DNA of 32,653 nt. Origin: Chthoniobacteraceae bacterium. GTDB taxonomy: Bacteria > Verrucomicrobiota > Verrucomicrobiia > Chthoniobacterales > Chthoniobacteraceae. Where the stretch lies: contig JANNWY010000251.1 of the NCBI GenBank assembly GCA_031409335.1, positions 1 through 32,653 on the forward strand, read 5' to 3'. Both the position numbers and the translations under genes were made by a program. The notes beneath the pieces are model-generated. The model saw only the letters and a program-made list of their open reading frames with translations, searched no databases and was not told the DNA's origin. Positions 2,263 to 25,195 of this stretch are shown here, piece by piece. Position 1 is the first letter of the stretch, and every line of letters starts with the position of its first letter.

Positions 2263-3462
2263 ATGAATATCGCGATCATCGGCGGCGGACCCGCAGGCTT
2301 GCGGGCGGCGGAAGTGGCGGCGTCCGATGGGGCGGCGGTGACGCTTTTTGATGCGAAGGCTTCGGTCGGAAGGAAGTTTCTTGTCGCGGGAAAGGGCGGG
2401 CTGAATCTGACGAATGCGGTTTCGCGGGAGGAGTTCGTGCCGCAGTATTCGGGGCCGGCGGAGTTGTGGGCTTCCCTTATCGCGGACTTCGATGCGGATG
2501 CGCTGCGCGAGTGGGCGGCGGAATTGGGTGTGGAAACTTTCGCGGCTTCGACGGGGCGGGTTTATCCGCGCGAGATGAAGGCTGCTCCGTTGTTGCGGCG
2601 GTGGGTGCAGCGGTTGCGCGAGGCGGGCGTGAAATTTGCCGCGCGTCATCGCTTCACCGGGCTGCGGCGCGGCGATGGATGGGAGCTGGATTTTCAAACG
2701 CCGGAAGAGCCGCGAACATTCCGCGCCGATGCGGTGATCCTAGCTCTCGGCGGTGGCTCGTGGCCGGAGACGGGATCGGATGGGGCGTGGGTTTCGCCGC
2801 TGGAAAAACTCGGCGTCGAAATCGCGCCGCTGCAACCGGCGAATTGCGGATGGGAATTTCCGTGGCCGCGCGCAGTGCTCGATGCGGCGGAAGGGCAGCC
2901 GCTGAAAAGCATCGCGGCGCGCGCGGGCGGCGTGGAAGTGCGCGGCGAATTGCTCGTGACGAAATACGGACTCGAAGGCGGCGCGCTTTACCAGCTCGGC
3001 CCGCAACTCCGCGCGCTGCCGGACATCGCGATCGACTTCAAACCTTCGTCCGCGATCGAACAGCTCGTCGCGAAGATGGGACCGGTCCGGCGCAACTTCC
3101 TAACCGAGGCACGCACGCGCTGGAAACTCAACGATGCGGTTTTCGCGATCGTGAGCCACGTCCCCGGACCGCGCGAATGGGCGTCCGCCGCAGCGCTCGC
3201 CGCTCACGTGAAAAACTGCCCGCTCCGGCTCACCGGTCCGCGCCCGATCGCGGAGGCGATCTCCAGCGCGGGCGGCGTTTGCTGGCGGGAGCTGGATGAC
3301 AATTTGATGCTGCGCAAATTGCCCGGCGTTTTCGTCGCGGGCGAGATGATCGACTGGGAAGCGCCCACGGGCGGTTATCTCATCCAGGGATGTTTTGCGA
3401 TGGGCACACGCGCGGCGCGCGGGGCGCTCACCGCGGGGTCGGCGTCGGGATTTCTCGGATGA
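2263..3462 (+). CDS. HI0933/YhiN (BaiN-like) family FAD-dependent oxidoreductase
   Basis: IIGGGPAGL FAD motif, GRKFLVAGKGGLNLTN, GRVYP, LALGGGSWPETGSDG, EAISSAGGV, AGEMIDWEAPTGGYLIQ. Start set at ATG 2263. Confidence 0.92.
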   Translation: MNIAIIGGGPAGLRAAEVAASDGAAVTLFDAKASVGRKFLVAGKGGLNLTNAVSREEFVPQYSGPAELWASLIADFDADALREWAAELGVETFAASTGRVYPREMKAAPLLRRWVQRLREAGVKFAARHRFTGLRRGDGWELDFQTPEEPRTFRADAVILALGGGSWPETGSDGAWVSPLEKLGVEIAPLQPANCGWEFPWPRAVLDAAEGQPLKSIAARAGGVEVRGELLVTKYGLEGGALYQLGPQLRALPDIAIDFKPSSAIEQLVAKMGPVRRNFLTEARTRWKLNDAVFAIVSHVPGPREWASAAALAAHVKNCPLRLTGPRPIAEAISSAGGVCWRELDDNLMLRKLPGVFVAGEMIDWEAPTGGYLIQGCFAMGTRAARGALTAGSASGFLG

Positions 3463-3940
3463 TTTTCGGCGGCTCCTTGCGCGGGGCGGGTTTTTTCTTG
3501 CCGCAATCCTTCACGATCAACGCGAGGCCCAGCAGGATGACGACGAGCCCGACCCAATTGAGCACGCTCATTTTCGTATCGATCATCTGCCAAGCCGGGA
3601 TGCGCTTCACCGTTTTCTCGATCTCATTCGTCAGCCGCTCGCGCGCTTTCGCCAGCGGCTCCGGCGCGCCGTTCTCGCCGCCGATGCGGAAGACGCCGGC
3701 GGACGGCTCGATCACCACGTCGATGTCTCCGCCCGAAGCATACCGACGGAAGTGCATGTGAAACGCATTCCCATTTCCGAGCCACGTCAACGCGCCGTCC
3801 CAGTCCGAGCCCATGAACAAAATCTCCTCGCCCGTCGCCGCCCATTTCACCACTGGCGAACAGATCACATGCGACATCCGGCCATCGAATTCCTCCCACT
3901 CGATCCGCACCGTGCCATCTGGCGAAAGGCTCGGCTCCAT
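3428..3940 (-). CDS. Hypothetical protein with one C-proximal transmembrane helix
   Basis: ATG 2 bp after the C25 gene stop. Hydrophobic stretch VLNWVGLVVILLGLALIV followed by a basic, Pro-rich tail. Overlaps the flavoprotein 3' end by 35 bp tail-to-tail. Confidence 0.7.
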   Translation of the reverse strand: MEPSLSPDGTVRIEWEEFDGRMSHVICSPVVKWAATGEEILFMGSDWDGALTWLGNGNAFHMHFRRYASGGDIDVVIEPSAGVFRIGGENGAPEPLAKARERLTNEIEKTVKRIPAWQMIDTKMSVLNWVGLVVILLGLALIVKDCGKKKPAPRKEPPKIIREIPTPTPR

Positions 3941-3942
3941 GC

Positions 3943-5364
3943 CTAACCGACCGCCAGCCGCACCGCCGGATCGCCGATGATGATGTAGCTGCGCGCGTCA
4001 TTGTGCGCCGTCCACATCCCGGAAAGCTCCACGTCATCCGGGACTTTTCCGTATTGAATTTCCTCCTTCTCGCTGGTGAGGACGGTCGCGAGTTCGGCGT
4101 AGCGTTCGTTGAAAAATTCCATCGCGCGCCCGACGGGCTGGCCTTGCAAAAGCCGGATCAGCGATCCGTCGAAAACCGCGAGCTGTTCGCCCGCGCGTTT
4201 CCACATGAACGAGCAACCCCACGCGCGCTCGACGTGGCCGACCACCGCGAGCATTCCACGATTCAGCAGCCGCTTCGGAAGTCGCCCGAGGAATCCGTGC
4301 GGCGCGATTTCGGAACGCACCCCCGTCGCGACGTGCGCGAAATCATCCAGCTTCGGCGTGCCCGCGCCGTAGCACGCGAAGAAAAATCCGATCGTCCCTT
4401 TCATCGCAGGCGAATCGCCGAGATCGTCCGCGGCGAAATAGAATTCCGGCGGAATCGCTTTCCGCCATTGAATCGGTCCCGGCCAATCCTGGCACAGCAG
4501 CGCGCCTTGATGTTCGAGCTGGCGCGCGTCCCCGTTTGGAAAACCCATGCCGTGACTCGCGGAGAAAAAAAACGCGGGAGCGTCCGCGCCGCCGAGGTAA
4601 TTGGAAAGTCGCGCCTTCGTCGCATCGGCGGCGAGTACGGTGTCGCATTTCCAATCGGGAAGCTCGCCCGCGAGTTTGGCCGCGAGCGGCTTCACGAGAT
4701 GATCCGCGCTCAATTGCGTCGCCTGATCGCCCGCATTGCGCACTCCGAAAAACACCGCGCGCCGCTCCAGCACGCGCGGCTGCGTTTCCGCCTCCACGAC
4801 GTTTCGCGCGTACTGCGCGTACTCTTCGATCGTATCGAAATGAATCCGTCCGACCGCGTACTGCACATCGAGCAGATACTGAAACCGAAACGGAATCGCC
4901 TCGGGATCGCCGACGAGCAGCAGATAGTACGGCACCTTGTCGGGATCGGCAGGCCCCGGCCCCACGCCGTGGCGCGCGAGAAATTGCGGGCTCGATTCAC
5001 CCGGCCGCAGCCCGCGCACGCCGGAGTATTCCTGGTAGCGTTTCTCGATCGCCGCCGTGGCCTGCGCCTTTCGCAGATCGAGCAGCGGCGCGAGCGCTTC
5101 GCGGATCGCCGGGTCGGCATCGTGCGCGAAAATCACGCCCCAGCCGGTGTACACGAGTTGCGTCTCGTCGCCTTTCACCAGCGAGCGCACGCCGAAATGC
5201 GGCTGGCTCACCTGCTCCCATTTTTGCGCGAGCGCGCGCAGTTGCGCGGGGTCCAGTTTTTCGCCCTGCGCGATTTTTGAAATGTCGTTCGTCGTCAGCG
5301 GCGGCAGCAGATAGCTGCCCGTCGCGCCGTCGATGCCGTTGAAAATGATGGGCTCGGGTTCCAT
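3943..5364 (-). CDS. Peptidase C25 (gingipain-like, clan CD) cysteine protease, no signal peptide
   Basis: YYLLLVGDP..IP, AVGRI, FFFSASHG (His-Gly), FFFACYGAG (Cys) and C-terminal YIIIGDPAVRL, the motif order of C25 proteases. Confidence 0.8.
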   Translation of the reverse strand: MEPEPIIFNGIDGATGSYLLPPLTTNDISKIAQGEKLDPAQLRALAQKWEQVSQPHFGVRSLVKGDETQLVYTGWGVIFAHDADPAIREALAPLLDLRKAQATAAIEKRYQEYSGVRGLRPGESSPQFLARHGVGPGPADPDKVPYYLLLVGDPEAIPFRFQYLLDVQYAVGRIHFDTIEEYAQYARNVVEAETQPRVLERRAVFFGVRNAGDQATQLSADHLVKPLAAKLAGELPDWKCDTVLAADATKARLSNYLGGADAPAFFFSASHGMGFPNGDARQLEHQGALLCQDWPGPIQWRKAIPPEFYFAADDLGDSPAMKGTIGFFFACYGAGTPKLDDFAHVATGVRSEIAPHGFLGRLPKRLLNRGMLAVVGHVERAWGCSFMWKRAGEQLAVFDGSLIRLLQGQPVGRAMEFFNERYAELATVLTSEKEEIQYGKVPDDVELSGMWTAHNDARSYIIIGDPAVRLAVG

Positions 5365-5388
5365 GGATTTGGAGTGGGTGAAATGACG

Positions 5389-8300
5389 TTATTTCGCGGG
5401 TTTCACCTCGACGTCCGGCAATCCCGGCCATGTCTTTCGCAGCGGGCCGTCACCCACGTAGGCGGCCCATTCGGTGTCGATTAAATTTCTGTTTGCGCGT
5501 TCGCGGCAGACGATTTTCAGTGCGTCGGGATGGAGTTCCCATTTGCGCAATTCACCGTCCCAACTTCCCGTGTATAGCCGTCGGCTGTCCGCGCTGAACG
5601 CGAGCGCGCGCACGGAATCGGTGTGCGCGGTGAGCCGCCCGGCGGGTTGCTTCGATTCCACATCCCAGAGGATCACCGAATGATCGTCGCTCCCCGACGC
5701 GAGCAATTTCCCATCCGGGCTGAACGCGGCGATCACCACCGGCGCGTGGTGTCCCGCGAGCGGCGGGGAAAGGCGCATCCGTGTTTCCGTATCCCAAATG
5801 ATCAGCGTGTTGTCGCCGCTCGTGGTCGCGAACATTTTCCCATCCGGGCTGAAGGCGACGCTGCGAATCTTGCCGGTGTGATCCTCGGGAAACTCCAGCA
5901 TTTGCGGCTTCTGATTTTTCACGACGCTCCAAATCACCGTCCGCTCGCCATCGCCACCCGTCACGAGCCGGTTGCCATCCGGGGTGAATTCGAGCGCGAA
6001 AAGTTCGTCGTCTTCTGGATTGGTGAGGGGATTGGCAAAAAGGAGTTCACCGCTCGCGACATCCCACACGAAAACTTTCGCGGGAACGGCGCTCACGCCG
6101 ACCGCGAGCTTCGCACCATCGCGACTCAGGCTGATCGTGGAGATCTTCCGCGCCGCGTCCTCCGCTTTCAGCGCGAATTTTCCGACGACCGTCGGCAAGC
6201 CATCCGCGCCGCTTTTTTCCAAATCGTGAATCCGCACGCCGCCATCCGGCGTGGTCGCGGCGAGCCGCCGGTTGTCTCTGCTGAAAGTGACGACGGGCAC
6301 CCACTTCGCGGCATCGTCCACGCGCTTGCGCGCGGCATCGGGGGGCAGCATTTCCGCGCGCACCTGCGCCTCGGCGCGCTTCATCGCTTCCGCGAACGTC
6401 AGCATTTGCTCCGAGGACGCTGGCCACTTCGTGAGGTCGCGCGTTTTCAGGACGACGCTGCCGCCGGCAAAGCCATTCGCCTCGCGTGTGCCATCCGCGC
6501 TGAAGGCGATGCTGAACGACGACTCGGATGCCTCCGCGCGACCCATCTCCGCCACATGAAACCATGTGTCCCACAGGATCGCCCGCCGATCCGCGCCGCC
6601 GGAAATCACGGTCTGCTTATCCGCGCTGAATGCGACGCTCAACACGCGGCCCACGTGGCCGGTGAAAGACGGACCCACGGTTTCCATCGACGGCACTTTC
6701 CACAGCCGCAGCGTCCCATCGAAACTCGACGTGACGAGCCGCGTCTCGTCCGGCCCGATGCCCGTGGTGCCCGGCGAAAACGCGAGCCCGCTCACGCCGC
6801 CATCGTGCATGCCAAATGCCGCGACGTTAAAGACCTCGCCCGGCTCCATCAGATTATACAAATCCACCGCTCCCGAACTACGGCCCGCGGCCAGGAATTT
6901 TCCATCCGCGCTGATCGCAAGACAGCGCACCGCGCTCACCGGCTGGTCTTTCCCCGCATCTTTCGGATGCTTTGCGGAAAAGGTCCACGGCTCGGCCGGC
7001 CACGCGTCGCCCTTCCGACTCAGGATCACGATGCGGCCATCCCGGCAACCCACGAAAAGCCGCGCGCCGGGAAGATCAAATGCCACCCCGCGAATCTCGA
7101 CATTCAACGACGGCAGCGCCTGGATCTTGCCGGTCGCGATATCCCAAAGATTGATTTGCCCCTTGCTGTCCGCGGACGCGAGCAGCGCGGATTTTCCACT
7201 GAACGCAACGGCCCACACGTCGCCCCGATGCGCGAATTCGGGCGGCAGGCGCTTCAACTCACCACTGCCCATATCGCGCACGACGATCGTCTGATCCTTG
7301 CTGCTCACGGCCATGTAGCGGTCATCGCCGCTGAAGGTGATCGTGCGCACCGCGTTCGCCACGAGGCCGGGCAGCCGCTCGACGATGCGGTGCGTCTTCA
7401 CGTCCCACACGAGCACCAGCCCGGTGTAGTCGCCGGTCACCACGCGCTTCTTGTCATGGCTGAAAGCGACCGCGCCAATCGACGACGGGGAACCGTGCAG
7501 ATAGGTCGTGAGCCGGGGATTGTGATACGCGGACGTGAGCAGGCTGCCGAGCGCGTCGGGCAATTGGCCGAGCCCGTTTTCCTCGGTGATGAGCTGCCCC
7601 TGCGTGGCCAGCAGCAGCGACACGTCGAGCCGCTCGTCCCGCATCTGGAATGCCCGCGCCGCAATGCTGCGCGCGTTCGCGATGTTGCGCTCGCGCGTCG
7701 CCTTGTCCCGCTGCTCTGTCGCCAGGTTGCGCTCGTTCTTCGCCATCTCCGCCTGGCCCAGCGCGTACCACGTCAGCCACGCGAAACCGCCCATCACCAC
7801 GGCCATCACGCACGCCGCCCAAAACGCCCATTTGTTTTTCCGCGCGTCGTGATTGCGCTGGCAGACTTCCAAAAAATCGCGCTCCGTCTGCGTCAGTTCG
7901 TCCGCGTGCTCGTCCGCCCACGCCTGCGCCTGCTTCCGCGCATCGCCGCGCAGACACAGCGCATCCGCGCGGCCCTGATTATTCCACACCGCCGCCTGGT
8001 GCTGGAGAACGCTGAGATTCCGCTCGCGCCACGCCGCGTTGTCCGCGCGGATTGGCTTCACCATGCGATCGTGCGCCAGCTCCAGCCACGTCACGCCGCG
8101 GCGCTCTTCACCGCGGATGAGATGCACATCGACGAGCTTCTGGATCGCCGTCTCATTCACTTCGCGGCTGTTCTCCGAGCCCACCATCACCTGGCTGCGG
8201 ATCCCGCCCTCCGTGATTAGCCGCCGGTCGAACCACTCGCGCAACACCCGCTCCGGCAGCTTGCTCGCCGCCGCGATCTGCGCCACCCGCTCCGCGTAAT

Positions 8301-9198
8301 AATCCGCCAGCGCCGAATCCACCGTCCCCGTCCCGACGATGTGCCCCGCCGTGATTTCCGTCACGCCGGCATCCAGCTTTTCCCAAAGCCGGTAACACAC
8401 CACCTGAAGCTGCACCGGCTCGATGTAAGGCCCGAGTTCCTTCTTCGCTTCACCGGTTGGCTCCTGCACCACCACCTCGCGTAAATCATCCACCAGCTTC
8501 GTCGTCGCCTCTTCCGTGAAAGTGACGCCGCATTCCTTCGCCGGCCGCTGCACGGCGACGCGCGCACTTTCCACACCCAGCAGATCGAGCCGGAACGTCG
8601 ATTTCAACCGCGTCGGAATCGGCCTCAGAAAAGGATCCAGCGCCGCCACGTATTCCTCGCGCATCGCAAACAGCGCCCACCGATTCAGGTCGCGCAGCGC
8701 CTCGCCGACTTGATTGAAAAAATCCATCTTCTGCTCCCGATGCGTCGGATCGAGCGTCAGGATTTCCTCGAACTGATCGAAAATCAGAAACGTCCCCTCG
8801 TCCCGTCCGCTTGCCGCCTCACGACGATTCAGATACTCCGCAAAAGACAACGTCGCGAGTTCCTCCGGCGCGATCGCCTGCTCCGCCGGCACGCCCTGCT
8901 CCAGCGAGACCAGCGCGCTCATCACGTAAAGATTGCGCGGACGCACTCCGCCACCCGCATCGCGATTCACGCGGATCACCGGCAGCACATGGAATTCCTC
9001 CTTCTCCAACTCCGGAATCAATCCTGCCTGAATCAGCGAAGTCTTCCCCGCGCCCGACGGCGAATACAGCAGCACGATCCGCTCGGCGATCAGCAGATCG
9101 AGCAACTGCCGCGCCTCCCGATCCCGCCCGTAAATGCGCTCGCCATACCGCAGCGACCGCGGGCCGACGTAGGGATTTTGCGACGCGGATTTGCTCAC
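5389..9198 (-). CDS. nSTAND1-type P-loop NTPase + TM helix + WD40 repeat protein (NLR-like)
   Basis: NPYVGPRSL...YGRD.E, Walker A YSPSGAGKTS, Walker B FLIFDQFEE, AMREEY, LELAHD; TM WAFWAACVMAVVMGGFAWLTWYA; more than a dozen repeats of the GH...V..VAFSPDG..LASGS.D..V.LWD type. GTG start overlaps the upstream TGA. Confidence 0.9.
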   Translation of the reverse strand: MSKSASQNPYVGPRSLRYGERIYGRDREARQLLDLLIAERIVLLYSPSGAGKTSLIQAGLIPELEKEEFHVLPVIRVNRDAGGGVRPRNLYVMSALVSLEQGVPAEQAIAPEELATLSFAEYLNRREAASGRDEGTFLIFDQFEEILTLDPTHREQKMDFFNQVGEALRDLNRWALFAMREEYVAALDPFLRPIPTRLKSTFRLDLLGVESARVAVQRPAKECGVTFTEEATTKLVDDLREVVVQEPTGEAKKELGPYIEPVQLQVVCYRLWEKLDAGVTEITAGHIVGTGTVDSALADYYAERVAQIAAASKLPERVLREWFDRRLITEGGIRSQVMVGSENSREVNETAIQKLVDVHLIRGEERRGVTWLELAHDRMVKPIRADNAAWRERNLSVLQHQAAVWNNQGRADALCLRGDARKQAQAWADEHADELTQTERDFLEVCQRNHDARKNKWAFWAACVMAVVMGGFAWLTWYALGQAEMAKNERNLATEQRDKATRERNIANARSIAARAFQMRDERLDVSLLLATQGQLITEENGLGQLPDALGSLLTSAYHNPRLTTYLHGSPSSIGAVAFSHDKKRVVTGDYTGLVLVWDVKTHRIVERLPGLVANAVRTITFSGDDRYMAVSSKDQTIVVRDMGSGELKRLPPEFAHRGDVWAVAFSGKSALLASADSKGQINLWDIATGKIQALPSLNVEIRGVAFDLPGARLFVGCRDGRIVILSRKGDAWPAEPWTFSAKHPKDAGKDQPVSAVRCLAISADGKFLAAGRSSGAVDLYNLMEPGEVFNVAAFGMHDGGVSGLAFSPGTTGIGPDETRLVTSSFDGTLRLWKVPSMETVGPSFTGHVGRVLSVAFSADKQTVISGGADRRAILWDTWFHVAEMGRAEASESSFSIAFSADGTREANGFAGGSVVLKTRDLTKWPASSEQMLTFAEAMKRAEAQVRAEMLPPDAARKRVDDAAKWVPVVTFSRDNRRLAATTPDGGVRIHDLEKSGADGLPTVVGKFALKAEDAARKISTISLSRDGAKLAVGVSAVPAKVFVWDVASGELLFANPLTNPEDDELFALEFTPDGNRLVTGGDGERTVIWSVVKNQKPQMLEFPEDHTGKIRSVAFSPDGKMFATTSGDNTLIIWDTETRMRLSPPLAGHHAPVVIAAFSPDGKLLASGSDDHSVILWDVESKQPAGRLTAHTDSVRALAFSADSRRLYTGSWDGELRKWELHPDALKIVCRERANRNLIDTEWAAYVGDGPLRKTWPGLPDVEVKPAK

Positions 9199-11246
9199 GA
9201 CGTTTTATTCATCTGCCGTTGCAGCTCTTTCAGAAAATCCTCCGCGCGGCCCCAGTAGATGCTGATTTTCGTGTTGGAAAAGTAACGCTCCAAGTATTGC
9301 CGGGCGCGTTTCGGGTCGATGGTGCGGTCTTGCTCGGGGTCGATTTGCACGGCGACGTGGGCGTATTTTCCGAGGAGGGCGCGGCCTTCGCGGCCTTTGA
9401 TGCTGCTGAAGAAAACGCGGAAATCCCAATCGCGAAGCTGGAAGCCGAGGAAGAGCAGCGCCGTGTTCGTGAGCTTCGCGCGGACGCTCGTGGGGATGAT
9501 GTCGTTGTTGCGCGTGACGTCGATGAGGTAGTCGAAGTAGTTGTCCTGCGTGAGCACGATCGACTCGGGGTCGCGCAGGTGGCCGAAGAGGTGATAGACG
9601 AGCGGCGCGTCCTTGGTCGGCTCGAAGCTCGGCTGCTCGGCGGCGGTCTCGTTGCCATCGTCATCGCGGCGTGGGCAGAGCGCGACGGCGGGCGTTTTTT
9701 TTGCGGCGGTGAGCGCGTCGGCGAGGAGGTTGTCGGGATTCGTCGTGAGATACACGGGGAGATCGAGACTCGCGAGGATCGCGTGCGGTTCGTCGGGCTC
9801 CTGTTCGCGCCGGATCGCGCCCGCGGTGGAAATGAGCTGCTGGATGTCGCCACTCGCGACTTCTTCGGAAATCTCGGGATACTGCCGCAGCACACCGGCG
9901 CGGAGTGCGTCGCAAAATTCATCGCGCACGAAGGTCTCCTCGCCCTGATCGACCGCGATGTATTGCGCGACGAGCGGCAGCTCCTCGCACTCGTCTCCCT
10001 CCATCGGGTAGCGATATTTTTTCGCCCACTGCCGCGCGATTTCGCGGAAGGAGCCGACGAGCGATTCCAGCAAACCGGAGCCGAGGATCGGCGTGCAGCG
10101 GCCTTTGCGAATGTTGCTCACCAGCGAAGGCCAGCGATCGAAACCCGGCTGCTCGCCGGTGAATCCCGGCGTGTACCACCAGATGCGCCCGCGTTTCAGC
10201 GACATGAAAAGCACGGGCATCCACCAATCCGGCCGCGTCCGCACCGCGCCGCGCGCCGCCGCCATCGCGCGGTCGATCTGGCCGTCCTCCTGCAGCTCCT
10301 TGAAAAAGACCGGCAAAAACGCGCCCGCGGTTTGCATGGTGACGCTGCCCTGCATGGCGACCACCGCCGGAATCCCCGCCTCCGCGAGCCGCGGCCCGAG
10401 CGCGGCCAGCACGCCGTCATCCCCGCTCGCGCCGGTGCCCGCGCTTTCACAAGAAGCGAGCACGACAAGCCGCGGACGCTGCTTCAGTTCGCTCAACCGC
10501 GTCGCGAGATCGGCCCCCTGCACGATGGCCGCGCCGCCCGCGTCGTCTTCCAAATATAGCAGCGGTTTTCCGTCGATGAACGCGCCGTGGCAAACCAGCA
10601 GCAGGATGTCGTAACCCTCGCGCAGTTTGCCGAGGATGTTATTCAAAGTCGCGGTGCCGCCGCCGCCGAGCACGGTCGTGGGGATCGTGCCGAGCCCGGT
10701 CGTCGCGCGCTGCGTTTCCCCCGCGACATCCACCGGCGCGAGCGCGCGTCCGCCGGGTTTGTAATTGCCGACATTCACTGGACTCGCGATCGCCACCAGC
10801 GCGCGCATCTCGTCTTTCGCGCGCAAATTCACCGGCCGCCAGTCGTCGCGGCTGATGAAGCGCGAGATCAGCATCCGCTCGCGCGTCGCGAGCCATTCGC
10901 CGGAATCCACATCGCACAACGTTTCCCAAACCAGGCTGTGCAAATCCGCCGCGCTTTTATCCACCAAGAGCCGCAGCCGGATCGGCATATCGAGCGACTC
11001 CGCCATCACACAGCCTTTTTCAAAAGCCGACTTGATCTTCGGATCGGCGAACAGCGACTGCGAAAGCAGCCGCCCGTATTCCCTCCGATCGCCGCTCACC
11101 GCGCGCAGCGCATCGAGATCAAACGCCGCGAGCCCGAGCACCGGTGCCACATCGGATTCGCTGTCCGAACGATCGAAACGGAGAGCCACCCGCACCGTGG
11201 CGTCGATTCGCTGGAGACTGATTTCGAGTTCGACAAATTGAGTCAT
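9195..11246 (-). CDS. CHAT (caspase-like) protease fused to a C-terminal SIR2-like (SIR2_2) domain
   Basis: CHAT: IRLRL...LH.L.WE.L, LLLVCHG (His), LVVLASCES (Cys), IPAVVAMQ, DWWMPVLF. SIR2-like: CTPILGSGL, YLTTNPDNLL, LVYHLFG, SIVLTQDNY, LLFLGFQLRDWDF. Confidence 0.85.
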   Translation of the reverse strand: MTQFVELEISLQRIDATVRVALRFDRSDSESDVAPVLGLAAFDLDALRAVSGDRREYGRLLSQSLFADPKIKSAFEKGCVMAESLDMPIRLRLLVDKSAADLHSLVWETLCDVDSGEWLATRERMLISRFISRDDWRPVNLRAKDEMRALVAIASPVNVGNYKPGGRALAPVDVAGETQRATTGLGTIPTTVLGGGGTATLNNILGKLREGYDILLLVCHGAFIDGKPLLYLEDDAGGAAIVQGADLATRLSELKQRPRLVVLASCESAGTGASGDDGVLAALGPRLAEAGIPAVVAMQGSVTMQTAGAFLPVFFKELQEDGQIDRAMAAARGAVRTRPDWWMPVLFMSLKRGRIWWYTPGFTGEQPGFDRWPSLVSNIRKGRCTPILGSGLLESLVGSFREIARQWAKKYRYPMEGDECEELPLVAQYIAVDQGEETFVRDEFCDALRAGVLRQYPEISEEVASGDIQQLISTAGAIRREQEPDEPHAILASLDLPVYLTTNPDNLLADALTAAKKTPAVALCPRRDDDGNETAAEQPSFEPTKDAPLVYHLFGHLRDPESIVLTQDNYFDYLIDVTRNNDIIPTSVRAKLTNTALLFLGFQLRDWDFRVFFSSIKGREGRALLGKYAHVAVQIDPEQDRTIDPKRARQYLERYFSNTKISIYWGRAEDFLKELQRQMNKTS

Positions 11247-11471
11247 CCTAACTGGAAAATTCCTGTTTTTTTCGCCGCGAGACCTTCATGGCGAACGCCC
11301 TTCAGCAAATGGTCTCCGAGCCGCGAAGGCAAGCTCAAGAAACGGCGAAAGGACTCTGCGCCGCGGGAACGCCCTTTTGCCTACTCGGTCAACTTGCCAA
11401 CCGACTCTCCGTTTGCGCGACGATTGCAGTTCGACCAACGCGAGTCTTGAAGACCGGGAAAACGCCCCCCC

Positions 11472-13385
11472 CTATTGCGGCAGGACCGCGCAGTCCGCGG
11501 ATCGGACGAGCGCCGATTCCGAAAGCGTGGACTCGAGCCGGGCGCATTTGAGGGAGCCGCCGTCGATCAGGTGGCAGTCGGGGAGCGGACTGGTGGGGAA
11601 TTCGCTGCCGACCAGCGCCGCGGCGGATTCGCCGAGCACGAGATCCGCGCCGGCGAGCTTGCTGTATTCCTGGAGGCGCCACGCCATGTTCACGGCGTCG
11701 CCGATGACGGTGAATTCCATGCGGCTCGCGGAGCCGATGTCGCCGACGACGACCGGGCCGGAATTGATGCCGATGCCGATCTTCAGAGTCGGCTGGCCGG
11801 CGGTCGCCCATTGCAGATTGAGCCGCGCAAGCGCCTCGCGCATGGCCAGCGCGCAGGCCACGGCATTGCGCGCGTCGCCCGCCGGGCCAGCGCTTTTCAC
11901 GTTTCCCCAGACGGCCATCACGGCGTCGCCGATGAATTTGTCGAGCGTGCCGCCGTGGGCGAAAACGCAATCGACCATCGCGCTGAAGTATTCATTCAAC
12001 TGCGCGACGAGCGCGCGTGAATCGACGCTGGCGGCGAAGCGGGTGAAATTGCGGATGTCGGAAAAGAGCACGGTGACCGGGCGCAATTCGCCGCCGCTCA
12101 CGCGGGCGTAACGATCGCGGTCGTCGAGGATTTCGTTCACGACGTTTCGCGACACGTAGCGTTCGAGCGTGGTGCGGAGTTGTTTCTTTTCCCGGCGCTC
12201 GATCACGATGTCGAGAAAGAGGCCGCTGATGCCGTTGAGATTGAAAGCGATGAGCGGCGCGACGGCTGGCAGGAAGAGGCCCGCCGAATCGTAGATCGCA
12301 AACACGGCGACGAGCCACGCCGCGCAGCCAAGCAGCAGCGCGATGAAACGCGCATACGGCTTTGGCACGAAGCGGCGCAGCAGCGACGGGATGAGCGCGA
12401 AGGCGGCGACGATCGCGGCGTTCGCGGCGGGCGGTGGTTCGTGGATGAAGTCGGGATGCAGCAGGCTGTTGATCGCGTTGAGATGCAGTTCGGGGCCGGG
12501 CATCCTGCCCATCGGCGTGGGATGCTCGTCCTGCTGCCAGTTTCCGTGCGCGCCGATGACGACGATTTTGTCGCGGAAAAATTCGCCGCTGCCGAAATTT
12601 TGCCGCCAGTAGCGCGGCGCGAAAAACATCAAAAGCGAACGCGGCACGAATGTGCCGGGAGGCCCGGCGAAACGGAACCGGTGAAGGTCGTCGCCGGATG
12701 GAATTAGGTCTCGGAGTCCTGCGCGTTCGAGGGCGCGGGCCGCGAGGGAAAACGATTCGTGGCCGACACCGCTGTCATTTGCCCAGCGAAATCTGGCACG
12801 CCGTATCGCACCTGTGGAGTCCCCCGAGTCAGACCAGAAATTGTCGAAACCAACGCGCGAATCGCGGGTCTCAGTATCGGCGATGAGCGTGGGTGTGGGG
12901 CCAACGACGAATGGCAGCACATCGCTGGAGATATTACCGGCGACGACGACGCGGTCGCGGTGGCGGTCGAGCATTTCGCGGAAAAGGTCGTCGTTCGAGG
13001 AGGGCTTCGGGAACGTCATATCGAAGATCACGGCGCGCGCGCCCGCTTTCACCAGACGGTCGAGCACGAGGCCGTGGATTTCGCGCGACCACGGCCACTC
13101 GTGGGCCATCAATTCCAGGGCGCGGCGCGATTCCGGCTCGGAGTCATCGGCTTCGAAAATCAGATCGCGATCGTGCTCCCGATCGAGCGTCGCGGAGGCG
13201 GTGTCCACGGCGAGGAAAACCAGCGACGGATCGCGGATGGCCGGACGCCCGGCGCGCGTGATCGCATCCTGCACGGCCAGTTCGATCCGCATCATCGGCG
13301 CGAAGCCGCTGAACTGGAGCGCGGCCAGGAGCGCGGTGCAGGCGCAGGCGAAAATCAGGTGTGGGAGCGTGCCACGGCGCTTCAT
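11472..13385 (-). CDS. CHASE2-domain class III adenylate/guanylate cyclase
   Basis: N-terminal TM, CHASE2 motifs (WPWSRE.H..VLD.L...GA.AV.FD..F; DKIVVIG; MPG.ELH.NAI..L), three TMs, then VLFSDIRNFT, DKFIGDAVMA and EFTVIGDAVN.A.RL (Lys/Thr suggest adenylyl specificity). Start set at ATG 13385. Confidence 0.93.
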   Translation of the reverse strand: MKRRGTLPHLIFACACTALLAALQFSGFAPMMRIELAVQDAITRAGRPAIRDPSLVFLAVDTASATLDREHDRDLIFEADDSEPESRRALELMAHEWPWSREIHGLVLDRLVKAGARAVIFDMTFPKPSSNDDLFREMLDRHRDRVVVAGNISSDVLPFVVGPTPTLIADTETRDSRVGFDNFWSDSGDSTGAIRRARFRWANDSGVGHESFSLAARALERAGLRDLIPSGDDLHRFRFAGPPGTFVPRSLLMFFAPRYWRQNFGSGEFFRDKIVVIGAHGNWQQDEHPTPMGRMPGPELHLNAINSLLHPDFIHEPPPAANAAIVAAFALIPSLLRRFVPKPYARFIALLLGCAAWLVAVFAIYDSAGLFLPAVAPLIAFNLNGISGLFLDIVIERREKKQLRTTLERYVSRNVVNEILDDRDRYARVSGGELRPVTVLFSDIRNFTRFAASVDSRALVAQLNEYFSAMVDCVFAHGGTLDKFIGDAVMAVWGNVKSAGPAGDARNAVACALAMREALARLNLQWATAGQPTLKIGIGINSGPVVVGDIGSASRMEFTVIGDAVNMAWRLQEYSKLAGADLVLGESAAALVGSEFPTSPLPDCHLIDGGSLKCARLESTLSESALVRSADCAVLPQ

Positions 13386-13453
13386 TGGCGGGATGTTTAG
13401 CCGGAAACATGCCGCCACCCGCGGCGGCACGACCGCTGCTTTTTTAGTTGCGA

Positions 13454-14395
13454 ATGGTCCGATCCAAACTGCTTTGCGCTGCCGCCATCGCGGCTCCCCT
13501 GCTCTGCGCACACGCGCAGTTGGCACCGGTGCAGCGCGAATACGCGCGCCAGTTTCAAAGCCCGCCGGGAACGGTCGATCTGCAAGGCCAGCGCAACGCG
13601 CCGGATGTCTCGCGCTTCGACGGCACTGCGATCGACGACGATGCCTTCGGGCAGCAGGTCTTCTTGAAACGCGAGGAGCGTCCGCGGCCGTTCAGCGCGT
13701 ATGCGGAAATCGGCGCGTTTGTGACGAACAACGTCGCGCTCGCGAAGCGTGATGCGCAGGAGGATGGCTTTCTCGTGGCAACGACGGCGGCGGCATTTGC
13801 ACACCGCGTCACCAACACCATCCGCATCGACGCACGCGCGCAGGCTGCGGCGTATCGCTACAACGAATACCGCGAGCTGGATTTCCAAAGCACGGATCTC
13901 GCCGTGAGCGTGACGTGGACCGCGCCCGTCGCTGGTGGCGTCGATCTGTCGGCGCGTTATGCCTTCACCGATCTCACCACCGCGGAGCGGACGCGGGAGT
14001 TTTACAAGAACCACGCGATCATCGTCGGCGCACAAACGGCGATCCCGATTTCGCGGGCGCAAATGGTGTATTTCGGAGCCAGCGCGCAGTGGAGCATGGC
14101 CGATCCGAAACCAGCGGGCCGCGATGAATACGGCGCCTACGCCGGCTACCGCGCGCAGATCGCGCGGCGGTTCTATGCGGACCTTTACTACCGGTACGGT
14201 CACTACGTTTACCGGGATGGCGCGGGCCGCAGGGATCACAATCACACCGTCTCACTGTCGCTCCACTACAAGGCCGCCGACTGGCTGGGCATGTCCGCGT
14301 CCACGTTTCTCGGCGCAAACCGGTCGAATCGCGCGGCCTTTGAATACGACGTGATGAACGCCGGCGTGGGCATCCAATGCTCGGTGCAATTTTGA
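13454..14395 (+). CDS. Putative outer-membrane beta-barrel protein
   Basis: Signal peptide (KLLCAAAIAAPLLCAHA|Q), Tyr-rich alternating amphipathic strands and a terminal Phe (GVGIQCSVQF*). Confidence 0.75.
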   Translation: MVRSKLLCAAAIAAPLLCAHAQLAPVQREYARQFQSPPGTVDLQGQRNAPDVSRFDGTAIDDDAFGQQVFLKREERPRPFSAYAEIGAFVTNNVALAKRDAQEDGFLVATTAAAFAHRVTNTIRIDARAQAAAYRYNEYRELDFQSTDLAVSVTWTAPVAGGVDLSARYAFTDLTTAERTREFYKNHAIIVGAQTAIPISRAQMVYFGASAQWSMADPKPAGRDEYGAYAGYRAQIARRFYADLYYRYGHYVYRDGAGRRDHNHTVSLSLHYKAADWLGMSASTFLGANRSNRAAFEYDVMNAGVGIQCSVQF

Positions 14396-17860: not shown

Positions 17861-18739
17861 ATGAAATTCACCGCCATCGCCATCGCCGCAGCTCTCGCGA
17901 TCCTCAGTCCTGCGCTCACCGCTGGCGCGCTGAAAGGCGCGACCGTGAGCCGCATCGTTAATGACGTGCAAGTGATCGCGCCGCAGGGGAAAGATCGGCG
18001 CGCCGCGGAGTGCGAAATCCTCGGCGACGATGCCAGCGTGCGCGTGGGTGCGCGGTCGCGGATGGAACTCGTTTTTGCCGATCAAACCATCGCCCGGCTG
18101 GGTGCGGAAACGGCGCTAAGATTCCAACCCGGAAAGCGCGCGCTGCGGCTCGATCGCGGCACGTTGCTGCTCCAGGTGCCGGGGTTTCGCGGCGGCGCGA
18201 GCATTCTCACCGGCCCGCTCAAGCTCTCGTGCGGCGAAGCGACGATTTTGATCGAACATCTGCCCGGCAAAAGCCTCAAGGCCGTCGTGCTCGAAGGCGA
18301 GATGCGCGTCTCGGTCGATCGTTTCCTCGGCGACAGCATCATCGTCCCTGCCGGGAAAATGCTGATCACGAGTGCCGACGTGAAACGCATTCCCGATCCC
18401 GTGGACACCGACCTGCGGACGCTCGTGACGACCTCGGCGCTGATCAATCCCAGCGCATTTCGCGGAGCGGAACCCGGGCCGGAAATCGCGCCGCTGCCGA
18501 GCCTGCCGCGGATCCTGCGGCAGATCGCGCGGCAGGAGGTGGCGCTGAATGCCAGGCGGCTGATTCGGACGAATCTGGTGATCTTTGGGAGCGGGACGAA
18601 CGTGGTGATCCCCGGCGCGGTCGATGCGTCGGTCACTTCTCAAAACCCTGAGAGCGCGGATCGCAGAACTGCGGAAATCGCGGTGGCACCGATGCCGGAG
18701 CAGCCGATGGCGATCGCGCCCGCTCTGCCAGAACCATAA
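17861..18739 (+). CDS. Secreted FecR-domain protein (short paralogue)
   Basis: Signal peptide MKFTAIAIAAALAILSPALTA; V.VG..SR.EL.F.D.TI.RLGAET...F......L.LDRG.LLL FecR pattern; VVLEG. Confidence 0.85.
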   Translation: MKFTAIAIAAALAILSPALTAGALKGATVSRIVNDVQVIAPQGKDRRAAECEILGDDASVRVGARSRMELVFADQTIARLGAETALRFQPGKRALRLDRGTLLLQVPGFRGGASILTGPLKLSCGEATILIEHLPGKSLKAVVLEGEMRVSVDRFLGDSIIVPAGKMLITSADVKRIPDPVDTDLRTLVTTSALINPSAFRGAEPGPEIAPLPSLPRILRQIARQEVALNARRLIRTNLVIFGSGTNVVIPGAVDASVTSQNPESADRRTAEIAVAPMPEQPMAIAPALPEP

Positions 18740-18799
18740 TCACCATATCTCGGCATCGGATGTGCTCGCTTGGGAGAGCGGCTGCAAACGCATCCGAAT

Positions 18800-21700
18800 A
18801 TGAAATTCACCGCTCTCCCTGCTTTCATCCTTACCGGCCTGATTTCCCACGCCCTCGCTGGCCCGCTCAAAGAGGCAAAAATCAATCAAATCGTCAACGA
18901 CGTGAAAGTGGTCGAGCCGCGCAAGGGCGCGCACCCGGCGACGCTTCAGGAATTGATCAAGGATGACCGCGGCGTCGCCACCGGGATCCAGTCGCGCGCA
19001 GAGCTGCTCTTTCAAGACAACACGCTCACGCGCCTCGGCGCGGAGACGTATTTCACGTTCCAACCCGGCACGCGGAATATCGACCTCGATCGCGGCTCGA
19101 TCCTGCTCCAAGTGCCGAAAAATCTCGGCGGCGCGCGCATCCGCGCGGCATCCGTCACGGCGTCAATCACGGGCACGACCATCATGGTCGAGCATCTGCC
19201 GGGGAAAAGCGTGAAGGTGGCCGTGCTGGAAGGCAGCCTGAACATCGGCCTGGACCGCCGGCCCGGCGAGACGGTGACGCTGCGGGCTGGGAAAATGGTG
19301 ACGCTCGATCCCAATGCGAAGGATCTGCCAAAGCCCGTGGACGTGAATCTGCGCAAGCTCGTGCTCACCTCGCCGCTCGTCGATCCGACCCTGTTCAAAG
19401 GCAAATCAAAGGCCCGCATTGCCGCGCTCCCGAGCATGGGTTTGATCGAGAAAGAGATCGCCGCGCAAATTGCGACGGTCCCCGCCGCGGACACGGCGAT
19501 GGCCGTTTTCGAGACGACCGCAGTCGCGGAAGATGCCATCAAACCGGAGACCGCGGCACCAGCGTTTGACGCCGAAAAACCAGCCACGAGCGTCGCGAAA
19601 ACAGAACTTCCGCTGCCCGCGAGCGAGCTGACACCGGAACTGGATGACTCGGACCCGCAAGCACCGGGAAAAACTCCGGCCAACCGGGGAGGTTTGACCG
19701 GACAAACGGGCGGCGTTTTAACCACCGCCACGGTGACGCCGACGGAATCTCTCGCGAACACTTCCGCAAACGCGGATACCGCGACCGGCAACGAAACGAC
19801 CAACGGCGCGCTCACCCGCACCGCGCCCGTGAGGCCCTCGGGAATCGCGACGCTGACACCACCAACGACGCCGCCAACGACGCCGCCAACGACGCCACCA
19901 ACGACGCCGCCAACAACGCCGCCAACGACGCCGCCAACAACGCCGCCGACAACGCCGCCAACAACGCCGCCAACAACGCCGCCGACGCCTACCGCGACGA
20001 ATCCCGCATTCATCACCGCGCCCAGTCCCTACGTGATCTCAAACGCAACCACGATCACGACTGGCAATCAGACGATCGCGACCAGTGGCGCGGTGGATGC
20101 GGGTGGCCTGTTCCAATCGGCGGCGGTGAACGGTTCGCCTTCCGCATTTCTTTTCGACACGCCGTCGGCCTTCGACGCGGCGAGCGGGATTGATTCCAAA
20201 TTTGGCGTGATGACCGGCGGCCCCGCGCCCGCGAACGGCGTGGCGGTCTATCGCTTTGCGGGCCTCGATATTCAGGGCGGCCCCACGACTGCCATCACTG
20301 GCGGCCTGACCGACCTCGCCCTCGTCTCGCAGTCCGGGATCACCTCCGGTTCCAGCGGTAGCGCGTGGACCCTGGACTCACTGCACTCGCTCTTTTTTGG
20401 AACCGTGAACGGACCGATTGTGATCGGCAACGAATTAAAAAAGACCTCGCTCATGTCGGGCTTCAAATATCTCCAAATGAATGCCCGTGGCAGCAGCGGC
20501 ACCGTGACGCTCGACAGCAACATCACCGTCCCATTTGCGAACCTCTACGTGGATGCGGAGCAAGGCATCACAGTTTCCAGCAACGGAAAAATCACCGCTT
20601 TCGAAACGGTGTTCAACACGCCCGGCACGATCGAAATCAACACGAGCCCGCTGGTCGCGACATTGAAGCTCAATGCAGGAACCGGCATCCGATCCACCGT
20701 CCCACTCGGAGCCGGGCTCGTCGAGATGACTGCACCGAGGCTCGAAACCACGGGCAACCTCTCGGCCGCAACCGGCTTCCTCAACATCGGCGCAGGCGGC
20801 ATCCAGGCGGGTGGCTCGACGCTGATGGGATTCGATCGCATCGACGTCGCGGGAAATGTGGAGTCCGGCACCGTCGGCGTAAGATACGCGCTCAATATTG
20901 GAGGCACATTTGCGACGCAGGCAGTGAACGGAGCCGTGAGACTGACAGCGAGCACGGTCGCGATCGGTGGCGGAATCGATCTAACGGCAGCGAACAACCA
21001 AGCCGGCGGCGCGCTCACCATCGACGCGACCGATGTGGACCTGAGCCCGGCGGGAATCAATGGCATCAAAGCTGACGGAGCTGACAGTCCACTCGCGTCC
21101 GGGGCCGGAGGCGACGGCGGCACGGTGAACCTGGGCACTTCGGCAAAACCGATTAAGAATTCCATCACGGTCTCGCGACCCATGTCCGCGACCACCGGGG
21201 CGAACGCCACGGGCGTGCTGACTGGCGGCACTGGCGGCACCGTGAACCTCGTCGCGACCGGACCGATCGCGGTGAATTCGACGGTGAAAGTCTCCGACAG
21301 CGCTCCGACCCGCGCGAGTAGGAACGGCGGAAACATCACTCTCGACAGCCGCAAAATCACCGGCACCGCCATCGCGATCAACAACTCCGGCCAGCTCCTC
21401 TCGCTCTTGAGCAGCGCTTCGCCCGGTTCGGGCGGAAACATCACCTTCGTCTCGTCCGGCGGCGACATCCTCGTCAATGGCGGCACCGTGCAGGCGGACA
21501 AAGGGACGGTCGATATGCGCAACAACGGCGCCGGCAATGTCGCGCTCACCAACGCGACCATCCGCGGCGATGTCGTGAAAATCGGCGCGCTCGGCGCGAA
21601 CGGCCAGCTCCTCATCGGCGGCGGCACGATCAGCGCCGACACGTCGCTGAAACTTTACGGCGGCACGAGCAATGGGCAGGTGCGCTTCACCGATGACGTG

Positions 21701-21910
21701 ACGCTCGGCGGCGCGAGCACAAAGATCATCGCCGGAAAAACGGTGACGATCGACAACACCAAGACCGTGACGATCGGCGGTTCCGCGGCGGCGAAAGTCT
21801 ATACCGATCGCGGAAACTACACCGGCTCGGGGGGCAACGGTTCGACGACCGGCAGCTTCGGGGGGGCTGGCGCTGGCACGCAGAGCTTCAACAAACGGCC
21901 CACCTTCTAA
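18800..21910 (+). CDS. Large secreted FecR-domain protein with Pro/Thr linker and Gly/Thr/Asn-rich (beta-helix-like) C-terminal region
   Basis: Signal peptide; VATGIQSRAELLFQDNTLTRLGAET, ASITGTT, VAVLEG; (PPTT)n linker; repeated GG.GG.V.L / GG.IT motifs. Start set at ATG 18800. Confidence 0.87.
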   Translation: MKFTALPAFILTGLISHALAGPLKEAKINQIVNDVKVVEPRKGAHPATLQELIKDDRGVATGIQSRAELLFQDNTLTRLGAETYFTFQPGTRNIDLDRGSILLQVPKNLGGARIRAASVTASITGTTIMVEHLPGKSVKVAVLEGSLNIGLDRRPGETVTLRAGKMVTLDPNAKDLPKPVDVNLRKLVLTSPLVDPTLFKGKSKARIAALPSMGLIEKEIAAQIATVPAADTAMAVFETTAVAEDAIKPETAAPAFDAEKPATSVAKTELPLPASELTPELDDSDPQAPGKTPANRGGLTGQTGGVLTTATVTPTESLANTSANADTATGNETTNGALTRTAPVRPSGIATLTPPTTPPTTPPTTPPTTPPTTPPTTPPTTPPTTPPTTPPTTPPTPTATNPAFITAPSPYVISNATTITTGNQTIATSGAVDAGGLFQSAAVNGSPSAFLFDTPSAFDAASGIDSKFGVMTGGPAPANGVAVYRFAGLDIQGGPTTAITGGLTDLALVSQSGITSGSSGSAWTLDSLHSLFFGTVNGPIVIGNELKKTSLMSGFKYLQMNARGSSGTVTLDSNITVPFANLYVDAEQGITVSSNGKITAFETVFNTPGTIEINTSPLVATLKLNAGTGIRSTVPLGAGLVEMTAPRLETTGNLSAATGFLNIGAGGIQAGGSTLMGFDRIDVAGNVESGTVGVRYALNIGGTFATQAVNGAVRLTASTVAIGGGIDLTAANNQAGGALTIDATDVDLSPAGINGIKADGADSPLASGAGGDGGTVNLGTSAKPIKNSITVSRPMSATTGANATGVLTGGTGGTVNLVATGPIAVNSTVKVSDSAPTRASRNGGNITLDSRKITGTAIAINNSGQLLSLLSSASPGSGGNITFVSSGGDILVNGGTVQADKGTVDMRNNGAGNVALTNATIRGDVVKIGALGANGQLLIGGGTISADTSLKLYGGTSNGQVRFTDDVTLGGASTKIIAGKTVTIDNTKTVTIGGSAAAKVYTDRGNYTGSGGNGSTTGSFGGAGAGTQSFNKRPTF
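19859..19990 (+). repeat. 12-bp coding tandem repeat, (PPTT)x10 + PPTP
   Basis: Eleven in-frame units of consensus CCRCCRACRACG; the first ten vary only at third codon positions and the last ends CCT. Confidence 0.95.
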
Positions 21911-24939: not shown

Positions 24940-25195
24940 GAACGTGAACTGCGGGATGCGGAATGCGGGACCGCATTCGCACGTTGGGATAGGCAATGAA
25001 GGTGACTTGGCAAAGGAGGAAACGTTACGGAACGGGCGGGCGGTTGGGTCAGGTTTTTTCGCTTCGCAAAACACCAGCGGACATCCCGTGAACAAGATGA
25101 CGCCTTCTGTAAGCCAAAAAAACCGGTGCGAGAGTTCGCACCCGGAATATGTTGCGGCCCCGTTTTTTCAATCCCCGCCTTCCCTCCCTCGCCCA

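Follow-up and report, generated by a model that had tools for sequence, protein, structure and literature searches.

SIR2 domains of prokaryotic immunity are usually treated as effectors that deplete nicotinamide adenine dinucleotide (NAD). SAMD9 carries a SIR2-like domain between its effector and its nucleotide-binding oligomerization domain (NOD); for this domain, NAD binding is considered unlikely; it stabilizes the closed state through a contact with the NOD, and SIR2/SIR2 contacts are required for antiviral activity (PMC13600222). The nSTAND1 ATPases were named by Kaur, Iyer, Burroughs, and Aravind (eLife 2021, PMC8195603), whose supplementary file 1 lists 'nSTAND1+TM' 461 times and includes operons such as 'CASPASE-> nSTAND1+BetaPropeller' and 'TIR+DrHyd-> nSTAND1+TM+BetaPropeller'. 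A cascade from SAVED-CHAT to PCaspase in type III-B CRISPR is mentioned in a preprint on type IV Thoeris (bioRxiv 10.1101/2024.10.24.620036). Here, we describe a locus in a 32,653-nucleotide stretch of DNA from a Chthoniobacteraceae bacterium (assembly GCA_031409335.1, contig JANNWY010000251.1; the whole stretch is referred to as the window). It encodes a 683-residue protein in which a CHAT protease is fused to a SIR2-fold domain that lacks the catalytic His (pseudo-SIR2), and an overlapping gene for an nSTAND1 ATPase. The coordinates of the features are given in Table 1.

The 683-residue protein was modeled with AlphaFold2 on 64 sequences, which gave a mean predicted local distance difference test score (pLDDT) of 83.1 and a predicted template modeling score of 0.80. 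Pfam recognized SIR2_2 (PF13289) at residues 498-656 (E 1.7e-22, 80.4 bits, cut-off 24.5), the top PADLOC model for the C-terminal half was ThsA (1.1e-15), and a phmmer search of PDB chains detected SIR2 similarity at 3.9e-6. Superimposed with VIA-align, residues 362-682 matched the whole SIR2 domain of SeThsA (7uxt_B; Z 21.8, root-mean-square deviation (rmsd) 3.1 Å, 266 residues aligned), and the SIR2 half also matched DSR2 (8wyc_C; Z 21.6) and KomC (9v0g_E; Z 19.9); its Foldseek matches ranged from 6.8e-11 to 1e-10. The full fold is thus matched, and the objection that the domain might not be a SIR2 fold, which had been raised in an earlier first-pass annotation made from the sequence alone, fails.

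That annotation had read the SIR2-like part as containing TTNPD and YHLFGH, and we found both motifs on the minus strand, at 9746-9732 and 9596-9579, respectively. In phmmer alignments with four solved SIR2 NADases (EcThsA, 8wc0; SeThsA, 7uxt; KomC, 9v0g; and BcThsA, 6lhx), the segment 'vyhlFgh' lay over 'vykmHgd', 'vyklHgd' or 'vikfHgt' in all four cases; the Phe of H-L-F-G-H (Phe554) therefore occupies the usual His slot, as had been proposed. Counting residues along the BcThsA (6lhx) row, Asn503 corresponds to N112 and Phe554 to H152, which we take to be the catalytic residues of BcThsA. The matches exceed chance by a wide margin. The PDB titles 'DSR2 (H171A)' and 'KomBC(H146N)' indicate that the equivalent His is the residue mutated by the depositors. 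At the nucleotide loop, the protein reads G-S-G-L-L in place of GAGxS.

The conservation of these positions was followed in two sets of homologues. A word-indexed search returned 1973 proteins at E <=1e-5; the 120 that were listed, 50-100% identical to the query, were aligned, and all 120 combine CHAT with SIR2_2. When only the SIR2 part served as the query of an exhaustive HMMER search, 3884 representatives of clusters formed at 50% identity were returned (E <=0.001), 995 of them at E <=1e-30, and the best 150 of the 3884, which are 39-68% identical, served as the diverse set. Position 554 is Phe in 116, Leu in 2 and Tyr in 2 of the 120 close homologues, and Phe in 131, Leu in 9, Tyr in 9 and Met in 1 of the 150 diverse representatives. 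The Phe of the HLFG motif predominates, and His is found in neither set, which disposes of the objection that alignment might place a His at the canonical catalytic position. The flanking His residues vary: His552 is present in 110/120 close homologues and 106/150 diverse representatives (Tyr in 18, Gln in 16), and His556 in 36/150. As candidates for a substitute catalytic residue, both are weakened by this variability. By these alignments, the loss of the catalytic His is a family-wide trait, beyond a local oddity.

The remaining NAD-contact positions are relaxed as well. Among the 120 close homologues, position 503 is Asn in 82, Asp in 23, Thr in 4, Ala in 3, Ser in 3, Glu in 2 and another residue in 3, and position 505 is Asp in 71, Ser in 34, Gly in 6, Thr in 4, Asn in 2, His in 1 and another residue in 2; in the diverse set, Asn and Asp are found at these positions in 93/150 and 86/150, respectively. 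The GAGxS and G-F/Y-S positions are regarded as NAD-contact motifs, in part on the basis of the Avs5 preprint (bioRxiv 10.1101/2025.07.08.663546). Position 393, the Ser of the GAGxS loop, is Leu in 53 and Thr in 40 of the 120, with other residues in the rest; at position 603, where the G-F/Y-S motif has its Ser, Gln is found in 76, Arg in 41 and His in 3. In the diverse set, Ser is not among the seven commonest residues at position 603, and it is present there in 1 of 19 proteins of variant architecture. Mean column identity is 0.70 in the SIR2 domain and 0.74 in CHAT, and many SIR2-domain columns are invariant, whereas the canonical NAD-contact positions 393, 503, 505, and 603 lie at or below the mean identity of the domain. 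Because the SIR2 mean is close to that of CHAT, the SIR2 fold is under constraint. Such a combination of a constrained fold with relaxed NAD contacts has the signature of a pseudo-enzyme.

The protease half keeps its catalytic residues. Pfam placed CHAT (PF12770) at residues 56-340 (E 2.4e-25, 90 bits, cut-off 24), and residues 3-351 of the model matched the TPR-CHAT protein of Craspase (8d9f_A; Z 20.9, rmsd 3.4, 282 residues aligned by VIA-align). The same half matched SAVED-CHAT (8tl0_C; Z 20.5) and separase (5fc2_B; Z 18.5), so that, in the model, it has a caspase-hemoglobinase fold. The VCHG and ASCES motifs lie where the first-pass annotation had placed them, and its claim of an intact dyad is borne out without exception: His220 and Cys266 are each present in 120/120 homologues. 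The CHAT domain is a protease with an intact His-Cys dyad, for which proteolysis is predicted.

The partner gene encodes a 1269-residue protein in which Pfam detected nSTAND1 at residues 20-410 (8.9e-30; 105 bits, cut-off 27.1) and WD40 repeats (1.1e-68). The stop codon of the CHAT-SIR2 gene and the GTG start codon of the STAND gene share four nucleotides, GTGA. Among 49 sequences, the Walker A residues G49-A-G-K52 and the Walker B residues D141, E144 and E145 of the STAND protein are invariant. The NOD begins at about residue 8 (NPYVGPR), leaving the STAND protein with no adaptor domain of its own, and Pfam found no Death-like or EAD adaptor in the CHAT-SIR2 protein or at the STAND N-terminus. 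No PADLOC model matched the STAND protein. A scan of a genome collection identified at least 580 relatives, and 78 loci were kept; they come mostly from Chloroflexota, with others from Verrucomicrobiota, Acidobacteriota, Actinomycetota and Proteobacteria. A full-length CHAT-SIR2 homologue is present in 66 of these loci, of which 61 have at least 1500 nucleotides of downstream sequence. In 54 of the 61, the next gene downstream is an nSTAND1 gene, and in two further loci (L014 and L048) the nSTAND1 gene lies upstream on the same strand.

The same Phe-type SIR2 also occurs in other company, as seen in 32 length-variant representatives scanned with Pfam. Six proteins have the order TIR-(CHAT)-SIR2; the further arrangements are TIR-SIR2 and C25-CHAT-SIR2, and rare metagenomic architectures include CHAT-metallophosphatase-SIR2 (P0219), EAD1-SIR2 (P0140) and CHAT-TIR-SIR2 (P0226). 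The domain stands alone in six proteins of about 350 residues, and 13 of the 32 variants are shorter proteins in which a part of CHAT is followed by SIR2. On the other side of the domain, SIR2 and nSTAND1 share one open reading frame (ORF) in P0132 and P0130, which are both N-terminally truncated fragments. The 1199-residue protein P0272 carries CHAT (50-329), SIR2 (479-600) and nSTAND1 (680-1039) in one chain, with HLFG kept. Since the SIR2 domain is constant beside the NOD while the N-terminal module varies, the pattern is that of an adaptor and not of an effector. The NAD-contact positions are most degenerate in the TIR-fused members (8 of 32), in which the residues at position 503 are D, N, N, S, H, S, N, H and those at position 505 are T, N, N, N, S, N, D, S.

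The STAND protein is predicted to contain a transmembrane helix between the NOD and the WD40 array, with a Kyte-Doolittle value of 1.79 over 19 residues, and 52 of 57 partner STAND proteins have an equivalent hydrophobic segment. In 50 of 53 STAND proteins, the N-terminal flank of this segment carries more Lys and Arg than the C-terminal flank, which, by the positive-inside rule, would place the NOD inside and the WD40 array outside the cell. These features predict a membrane-spanning protein resembling the NOD-like receptors (NLRs), with its sensor outside the cytoplasm.

Given this context, we lean toward a reading in which the pseudo-SIR2 is predicted to be an adaptor or control module that links CHAT with the product of the overlapping gene, the nSTAND1 ATPase. 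In the proposed mechanism, the STAND protein would span the inner membrane with its NOD inside and its WD40 array outside, and a ligand bound to the WD40 array would lead to ATP-dependent opening or oligomerization of the NOD. The pseudo-SIR2, sitting directly N-terminal of an adaptor-less NOD, would hold CHAT inactive on the NOD; upon STAND activation, it would gather CHAT domains, as the SAMD9 SIR2-like domain acts through SIR2/NOD and SIR2/SIR2 contacts. Active CHAT might then cut its targets, which could be bulk proteins or possibly the gingipain-like protease encoded by the neighboring gene as a second tier, by analogy with SAVED-CHAT acting on PCaspase. By the same kind of analogy, the cell may stop growing or die as a result, in the setting of a conflict or of defense.

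We predicted a complex of the NOD (residues 1-455) with the SIR2 domain (residues 368-683), which scored 0.36 (0.00, 0.42 and 0.36 in individual runs), while the best of three controls scored 0.00. In the calibration of this score, the mark was reached by 116/157 solved complexes and 2/215 mismatched pairs; at <=0.60, it was reached by only 18/157 solved complexes and by both of the passing mismatches. The pLDDT of the partner was at least 76. The prediction weakly supports the adaptor role.

Several observations weigh against this reading. The runs of the complex prediction had at least 0% of contacts in common, and one run scored 0.00. The helical lid of the ThsA-type SIR2 is kept in the model (266 residues aligned to SeThsA), unlike in SAMD9. 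The nucleotide loop has its first Gly (Gly389) in 142/142 ungapped representatives, and the protein studied here retains both Asn503 and Asp505 of the TTNxD motif, so that it may still bind a nucleotide to some extent. According to the Avs5 preprint, PaAvs5 remains an NADase although its HG motif reads NG, so that loss of the His alone is no proof of inactivity (bioRxiv 10.1101/2025.07.08.663546). At the level of gene order, four of the 61 loci (L001, L004, L005 and L047) add no support, the CHAT-SIR2 gene lying 70-411 nucleotides from the contig start with no upstream view, and one locus (L010) has no STAND gene within 7 kb of its CHAT-SIR2 gene.

These points can be read in favor of other roles. 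The first-pass annotation had suggested either a rewired active site or a catalytically dead domain that regulates the protease and might sense NAD breakdown products. The dead branch appears to fit the conservation pattern better than a rewired site. Its first part is favored by the absence of a His at position 554 and the inconstancy of His552, His556 and Asn503; regulation of the protease is kept here as a predicted role. The sensing of NAD or ADP-ribose (ADPR) products was not supported, as the contact positions vary in the family and are most degenerate in the TIR-fused members. A dead SIR2 acting as a ligand sensor, which would recognize NAD+, ADP-ribose or a signal of the cyclic ADPR type, leave it uncleaved and switch CHAT allosterically, is accordingly an unlikely alternative, even though the complete SIR2 fold including the helical lid is retained, the loop Gly389 is invariant among the ungapped representatives, and 8 of the 32 variant architectures have a TIR domain in the same protein. 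Caspase-like effectors gated by a ligand are moreover established: one preprint describes a type IV Thoeris caspase that is switched on by N7-cADPR through its C-terminal domain (bioRxiv 10.1101/2024.10.24.620036). In the TIR-fused members, however, the Asn and Asp positions are more degenerate, which disfavors sensing of a TIR-made ADPR-type signal in the canonical pocket. Most loci also lack a TIR or any other signal-making gene, yet they have a STAND partner, and a sensor would leave the fusion to nSTAND1 unexplained. The context of a STAND gene and a C25-like gene, which the first-pass annotation had not taken into account, points to an adaptor or control role toward the STAND switch rather than to metabolite sensing.

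Less probable again, in our estimate, is a pseudo-SIR2 that works independently of STAND, either by assembling with itself into a dimer, tetramer or filament in which CHAT is activated through proximity, or by recruiting substrates. The nearest solved SIR2 relatives form helical or tetrameric assemblies, as the titles of 8bto, 9v0g and 8y13 state, such assemblies are formed by the SIR2 domains of ThsA, DSR2 and KomBC, and SAMD9 activity needs SIR2/SIR2 contacts (PMC13600222). L010 without its STAND neighbor and the six stand-alone Phe-type proteins would also suit this explanation. The near-constant adjacency of nSTAND1 and the fusions nevertheless argue for a functional link, and self-assembly is compatible with STAND docking, so that this alternative overlaps with the coupling role. 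We regard as very improbable that the SIR2 domain is a rewired NADase, or another NAD consumer, using His552 or another residue, which would make the protein a dual protease/NADase effector. His552 lies two residues ahead of Phe554 and is kept in most close homologues, Asn503 and Asp505 are kept in the studied protein, and the HG of Avs5 can be replaced by NG with activity kept. Against this, the GAGXS and TTNXD motifs are conserved in Avs5, in which defense was abolished by Ala or Gln at the His/Asn position (bioRxiv 10.1101/2025.07.08.663546), whereas here position 554 is hydrophobic (Phe, Leu, Tyr or Met). In the diverse set, His552 is limited to the 106/150 given above, Asn503 is replaced in 57/150 and Asp505 in 64/150. 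An effector should also alternate with other effectors, whereas this SIR2 stays constant behind CHAT, TIR, metallophosphatase and C25 domains. Coupling of CHAT to the STAND ATPase is the role that we carry forward.

Table 1. Features of the CHAT-pseudoSIR2/nSTAND1 locus, in window coordinates.
Feature	Position	Strand	Basis
CHAT-pseudoSIR2 gene (P0001)	9195..11246	-	ORF of 683 amino acids; Pfam CHAT + SIR2_2
CHAT (caspase-like, clan CD) protease domain, residues about 3-351	10194..11240	-	VIA-align, Pfam
Catalytic His220 codon of CHAT, motif VCHG (10595-10584)	10587..10589	-	Motif position; 120/120 homologues
Catalytic Cys266 codon of CHAT, motif ASCES (10457-10443)	10449..10451	-	Motif position; 120/120 homologues
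SIR2-fold domain without catalytic His (pseudo-SIR2), residues about 362-683	9198..10163	-	VIA-align, Foldseek
Asn503 codon, SIR2 catalytic Asn position (BcThsA N112)	9738..9740	-	phmmer alignment
Phe554 codon, SIR2 catalytic His position (BcThsA H152)	9585..9587	-	phmmer alignment
nSTAND1 ATPase-transmembrane helix-WD40 gene, 1269 amino acids	5389..9198	-	Pfam
Predicted transmembrane helix, STAND residues 457-480, between NOD and WD40 array	7759..7830	-	Kyte-Doolittle
Gingipain-like (Peptidase_C25) clan CD cysteine peptidase, 473 amino acids	3943..5364	-	Pfam on family, Foldseek

A third gene, which encodes the gingipain-like peptidase, starts 24 nucleotides downstream of the STAND gene. Pfam matched C25 in 15/15 aligned members of its family (best 2.9e-9), and the copy in the window scored 2.7e-4 and 20.7 bits, under the 23-bit cut-off. 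His271-Gly272 is invariant in the family, and Cys331 is nearly invariant. The AlphaFold2 model of the protein (pLDDT 85.8) matched the gingipains Kgp (6i9a, 1.5e-7) and RgpB (1cvr, 6.2e-7) in Foldseek, whereas sequence searches against PDB chains, with the single protein and with a profile, gave only chance-level matches. Homologues of this gene are present in 24 of 38 testable loci, and a C25 domain is fused ahead of CHAT-SIR2 in P0254 and in an ORF of locus L059 (5354-9067). A CHASE2-adenylate/guanylate cyclase gene (11472-13526, minus strand), 225 nucleotides upstream of the CHAT-SIR2 gene, was considered as a part of the module and rejected, with a homologue in only 1/78 loci. Positions 3300-11600 were scanned for transcription signals; no promoter-like site was found, and the 11 terminator-like sites compare with an expectation of 9.6. 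The source genome carries a single copy of the CHAT-SIR2/STAND module.

Copy number and layout vary among the other loci. L018, L026 and L069 have two or three nSTAND1 genes, and L018 also has two tandem CHAT-SIR2 genes; these duplicates suggest local duplication of the module. The orphan CHAT-SIR2 gene of L010 occupies 6974-9073 on the plus strand, and a 919-residue WD40-only protein is encoded 4 kb away on the opposite strand. Elsewhere in the window, a 2383-residue protein that combines a CotH kinase domain with four Lamin Tail Domains is encoded at 24902-32053 (plus strand). In L001, the closest genomic relative, a 1567-residue protein of the same make-up is encoded near the CHAT-SIR2 gene, at 3503-8206 (plus strand). 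The region 17861-23047 (plus strand) encodes FecR-domain proteins of 292 and 1046 residues, and after them a histidine kinase that carries a cyclic-nucleotide-binding domain, and may be a separate signaling cluster.

The family is large and widespread, with 995 clusters at 50% identity (E <=1e-30) and at least 580 loci, and in it the fold has been kept under purifying selection, whereas the catalytic His is lost and the NAD contacts are relaxed. If the pseudo-SIR2 is a docking or control module, it would show how effectors are recruited in split NLR-like systems without Death-like adaptors, it would provide a tractable bacterial model for the SAMD9 SIR2-like domain, and it would warn annotation pipelines against equating an SIR2_2 match with an NADase. 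The predicted outside-facing WD40 array and the gingipain-like second protease raise the ideas of extracytoplasmic sensing and of a bacterial protease cascade. A wider generalization is tentative and, on balance, doubtful: a dead sirtuin fold, once an immune effector that destroyed NAD, might have become a universal plug that docks CHAT, TIR, gingipain-like, metallophosphatase and EAD1 killers on a membrane-spanning NLR-like ATPase with an outside-facing WD40 array, forming a bacterial counterpart of the death receptors that feeds a two-tier caspase cascade, and the same route from effector to adaptor might explain the SIR2-like domain of human SAMD9.

Compared with the nSTAND1-centered systems already described, the locus has the same nSTAND1 NTPase with intact Walker motifs, transmembrane segment, beta-propeller/WD40 sensor and adjacent effector gene. 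In supplementary file 1 of PMC8195603, no caspase/nSTAND1 operon includes any of the eight 'SIR2' entries and 'CASPASE+DrHyd' is absent (file 13 lay outside this search), and the main text has no discussion of a dead SIR2 or of membrane topology. The main text of Kaur et al. 2020 (PMC7159879) contains none of the terms 'SIR2', 'sirtuin', 'CHAT', and 'nSTAND', and two of its supplements are without 'SIR2'. Our full-text literature searches returned no His-less SIR2 joined to CHAT or nSTAND1; for a dead SIR2, only the work on Avs5 and SAMD9 was relevant. The layout of caspase, STAND and transmembrane segment is already catalogued, and a dead SIR2 within such operons is absent from that catalogue. 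The novelty is a pseudo-SIR2 with a predicted coupling role within nSTAND1/NLR-like conflict systems, and not a new category of system.

The NADases ThsA, DSR2 and KomC have the same fold throughout the domain, helical insert included, and sequence similarity to them is detectable. Here, in contrast, the His is replaced by Phe family-wide, the Asn, Asp, Ser and Gly-loop positions are relaxed, neither SLOG nor another known sensor domain is present, and the SIR2 lies behind a protease and is paired with a STAND ATPase. Unlike in type IV Thoeris, Pfam found no TIR domain in the 13 ORFs of the window that were scanned, and TIR is confined to fusions in some distant relatives. As in SAVED-CHAT/PCaspase and Craspase, a regulator would restrain CHAT, a sensor acting ahead of it would switch it on, and, as with PCaspase, a second clan CD protease is encoded alongside; the regulator, however, is a pseudo-SIR2 with a STAND ATPase instead of SAVED, or TPR with CRISPR, and the second protease is of the C25 type, with a putative cleavage link.

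In the Apaf-1 apoptosome, as is predicted here, a caspase-family protease is under the control of a STAND ATPase that carries a WD40 sensor, but Apaf-1 is cytosolic and recruits procaspase-9 by CARD-CARD contacts, whereas this system has a SIR2-fold module in place of CARD or EAD and its WD40 array lies beyond a predicted transmembrane helix. It differs from the Avs-type STANDs in that the effector is on a separate, overlapping gene, the STAND protein has a transmembrane helix, and no PADLOC model covers it. Avs5 comes nearer, with a SIR2 directly N-terminal of a STAND NTPase and a part of its family tolerating a residue other than His at HG; Avs5, however, is a single cytosolic polypeptide that keeps GAGXS and TTNXD, hydrolyzes NAD+ and uses SIR2 as its effector (bioRxiv 10.1101/2025.07.08.663546). 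Here, the SIR2 motifs are degenerate, CHAT is added, SIR2 and NOD belong to separate chains that part at their boundary, and a transmembrane helix is present in the STAND protein. By order and described role, SAMD9 and SAMD9L share the series effector, SIR2-like domain, STAND NOD and repeats. The SAMD9 domain has no NAD-binding lid, which is kept here, and it belongs to one cytosolic protein with a tRNase effector and a TPR-OB sensor (PMC13600222). By analogy, SAMD9 would be the closest mechanistic precedent for a pseudo-SIR2 that acts as an adaptor between an effector and a STAND switch.

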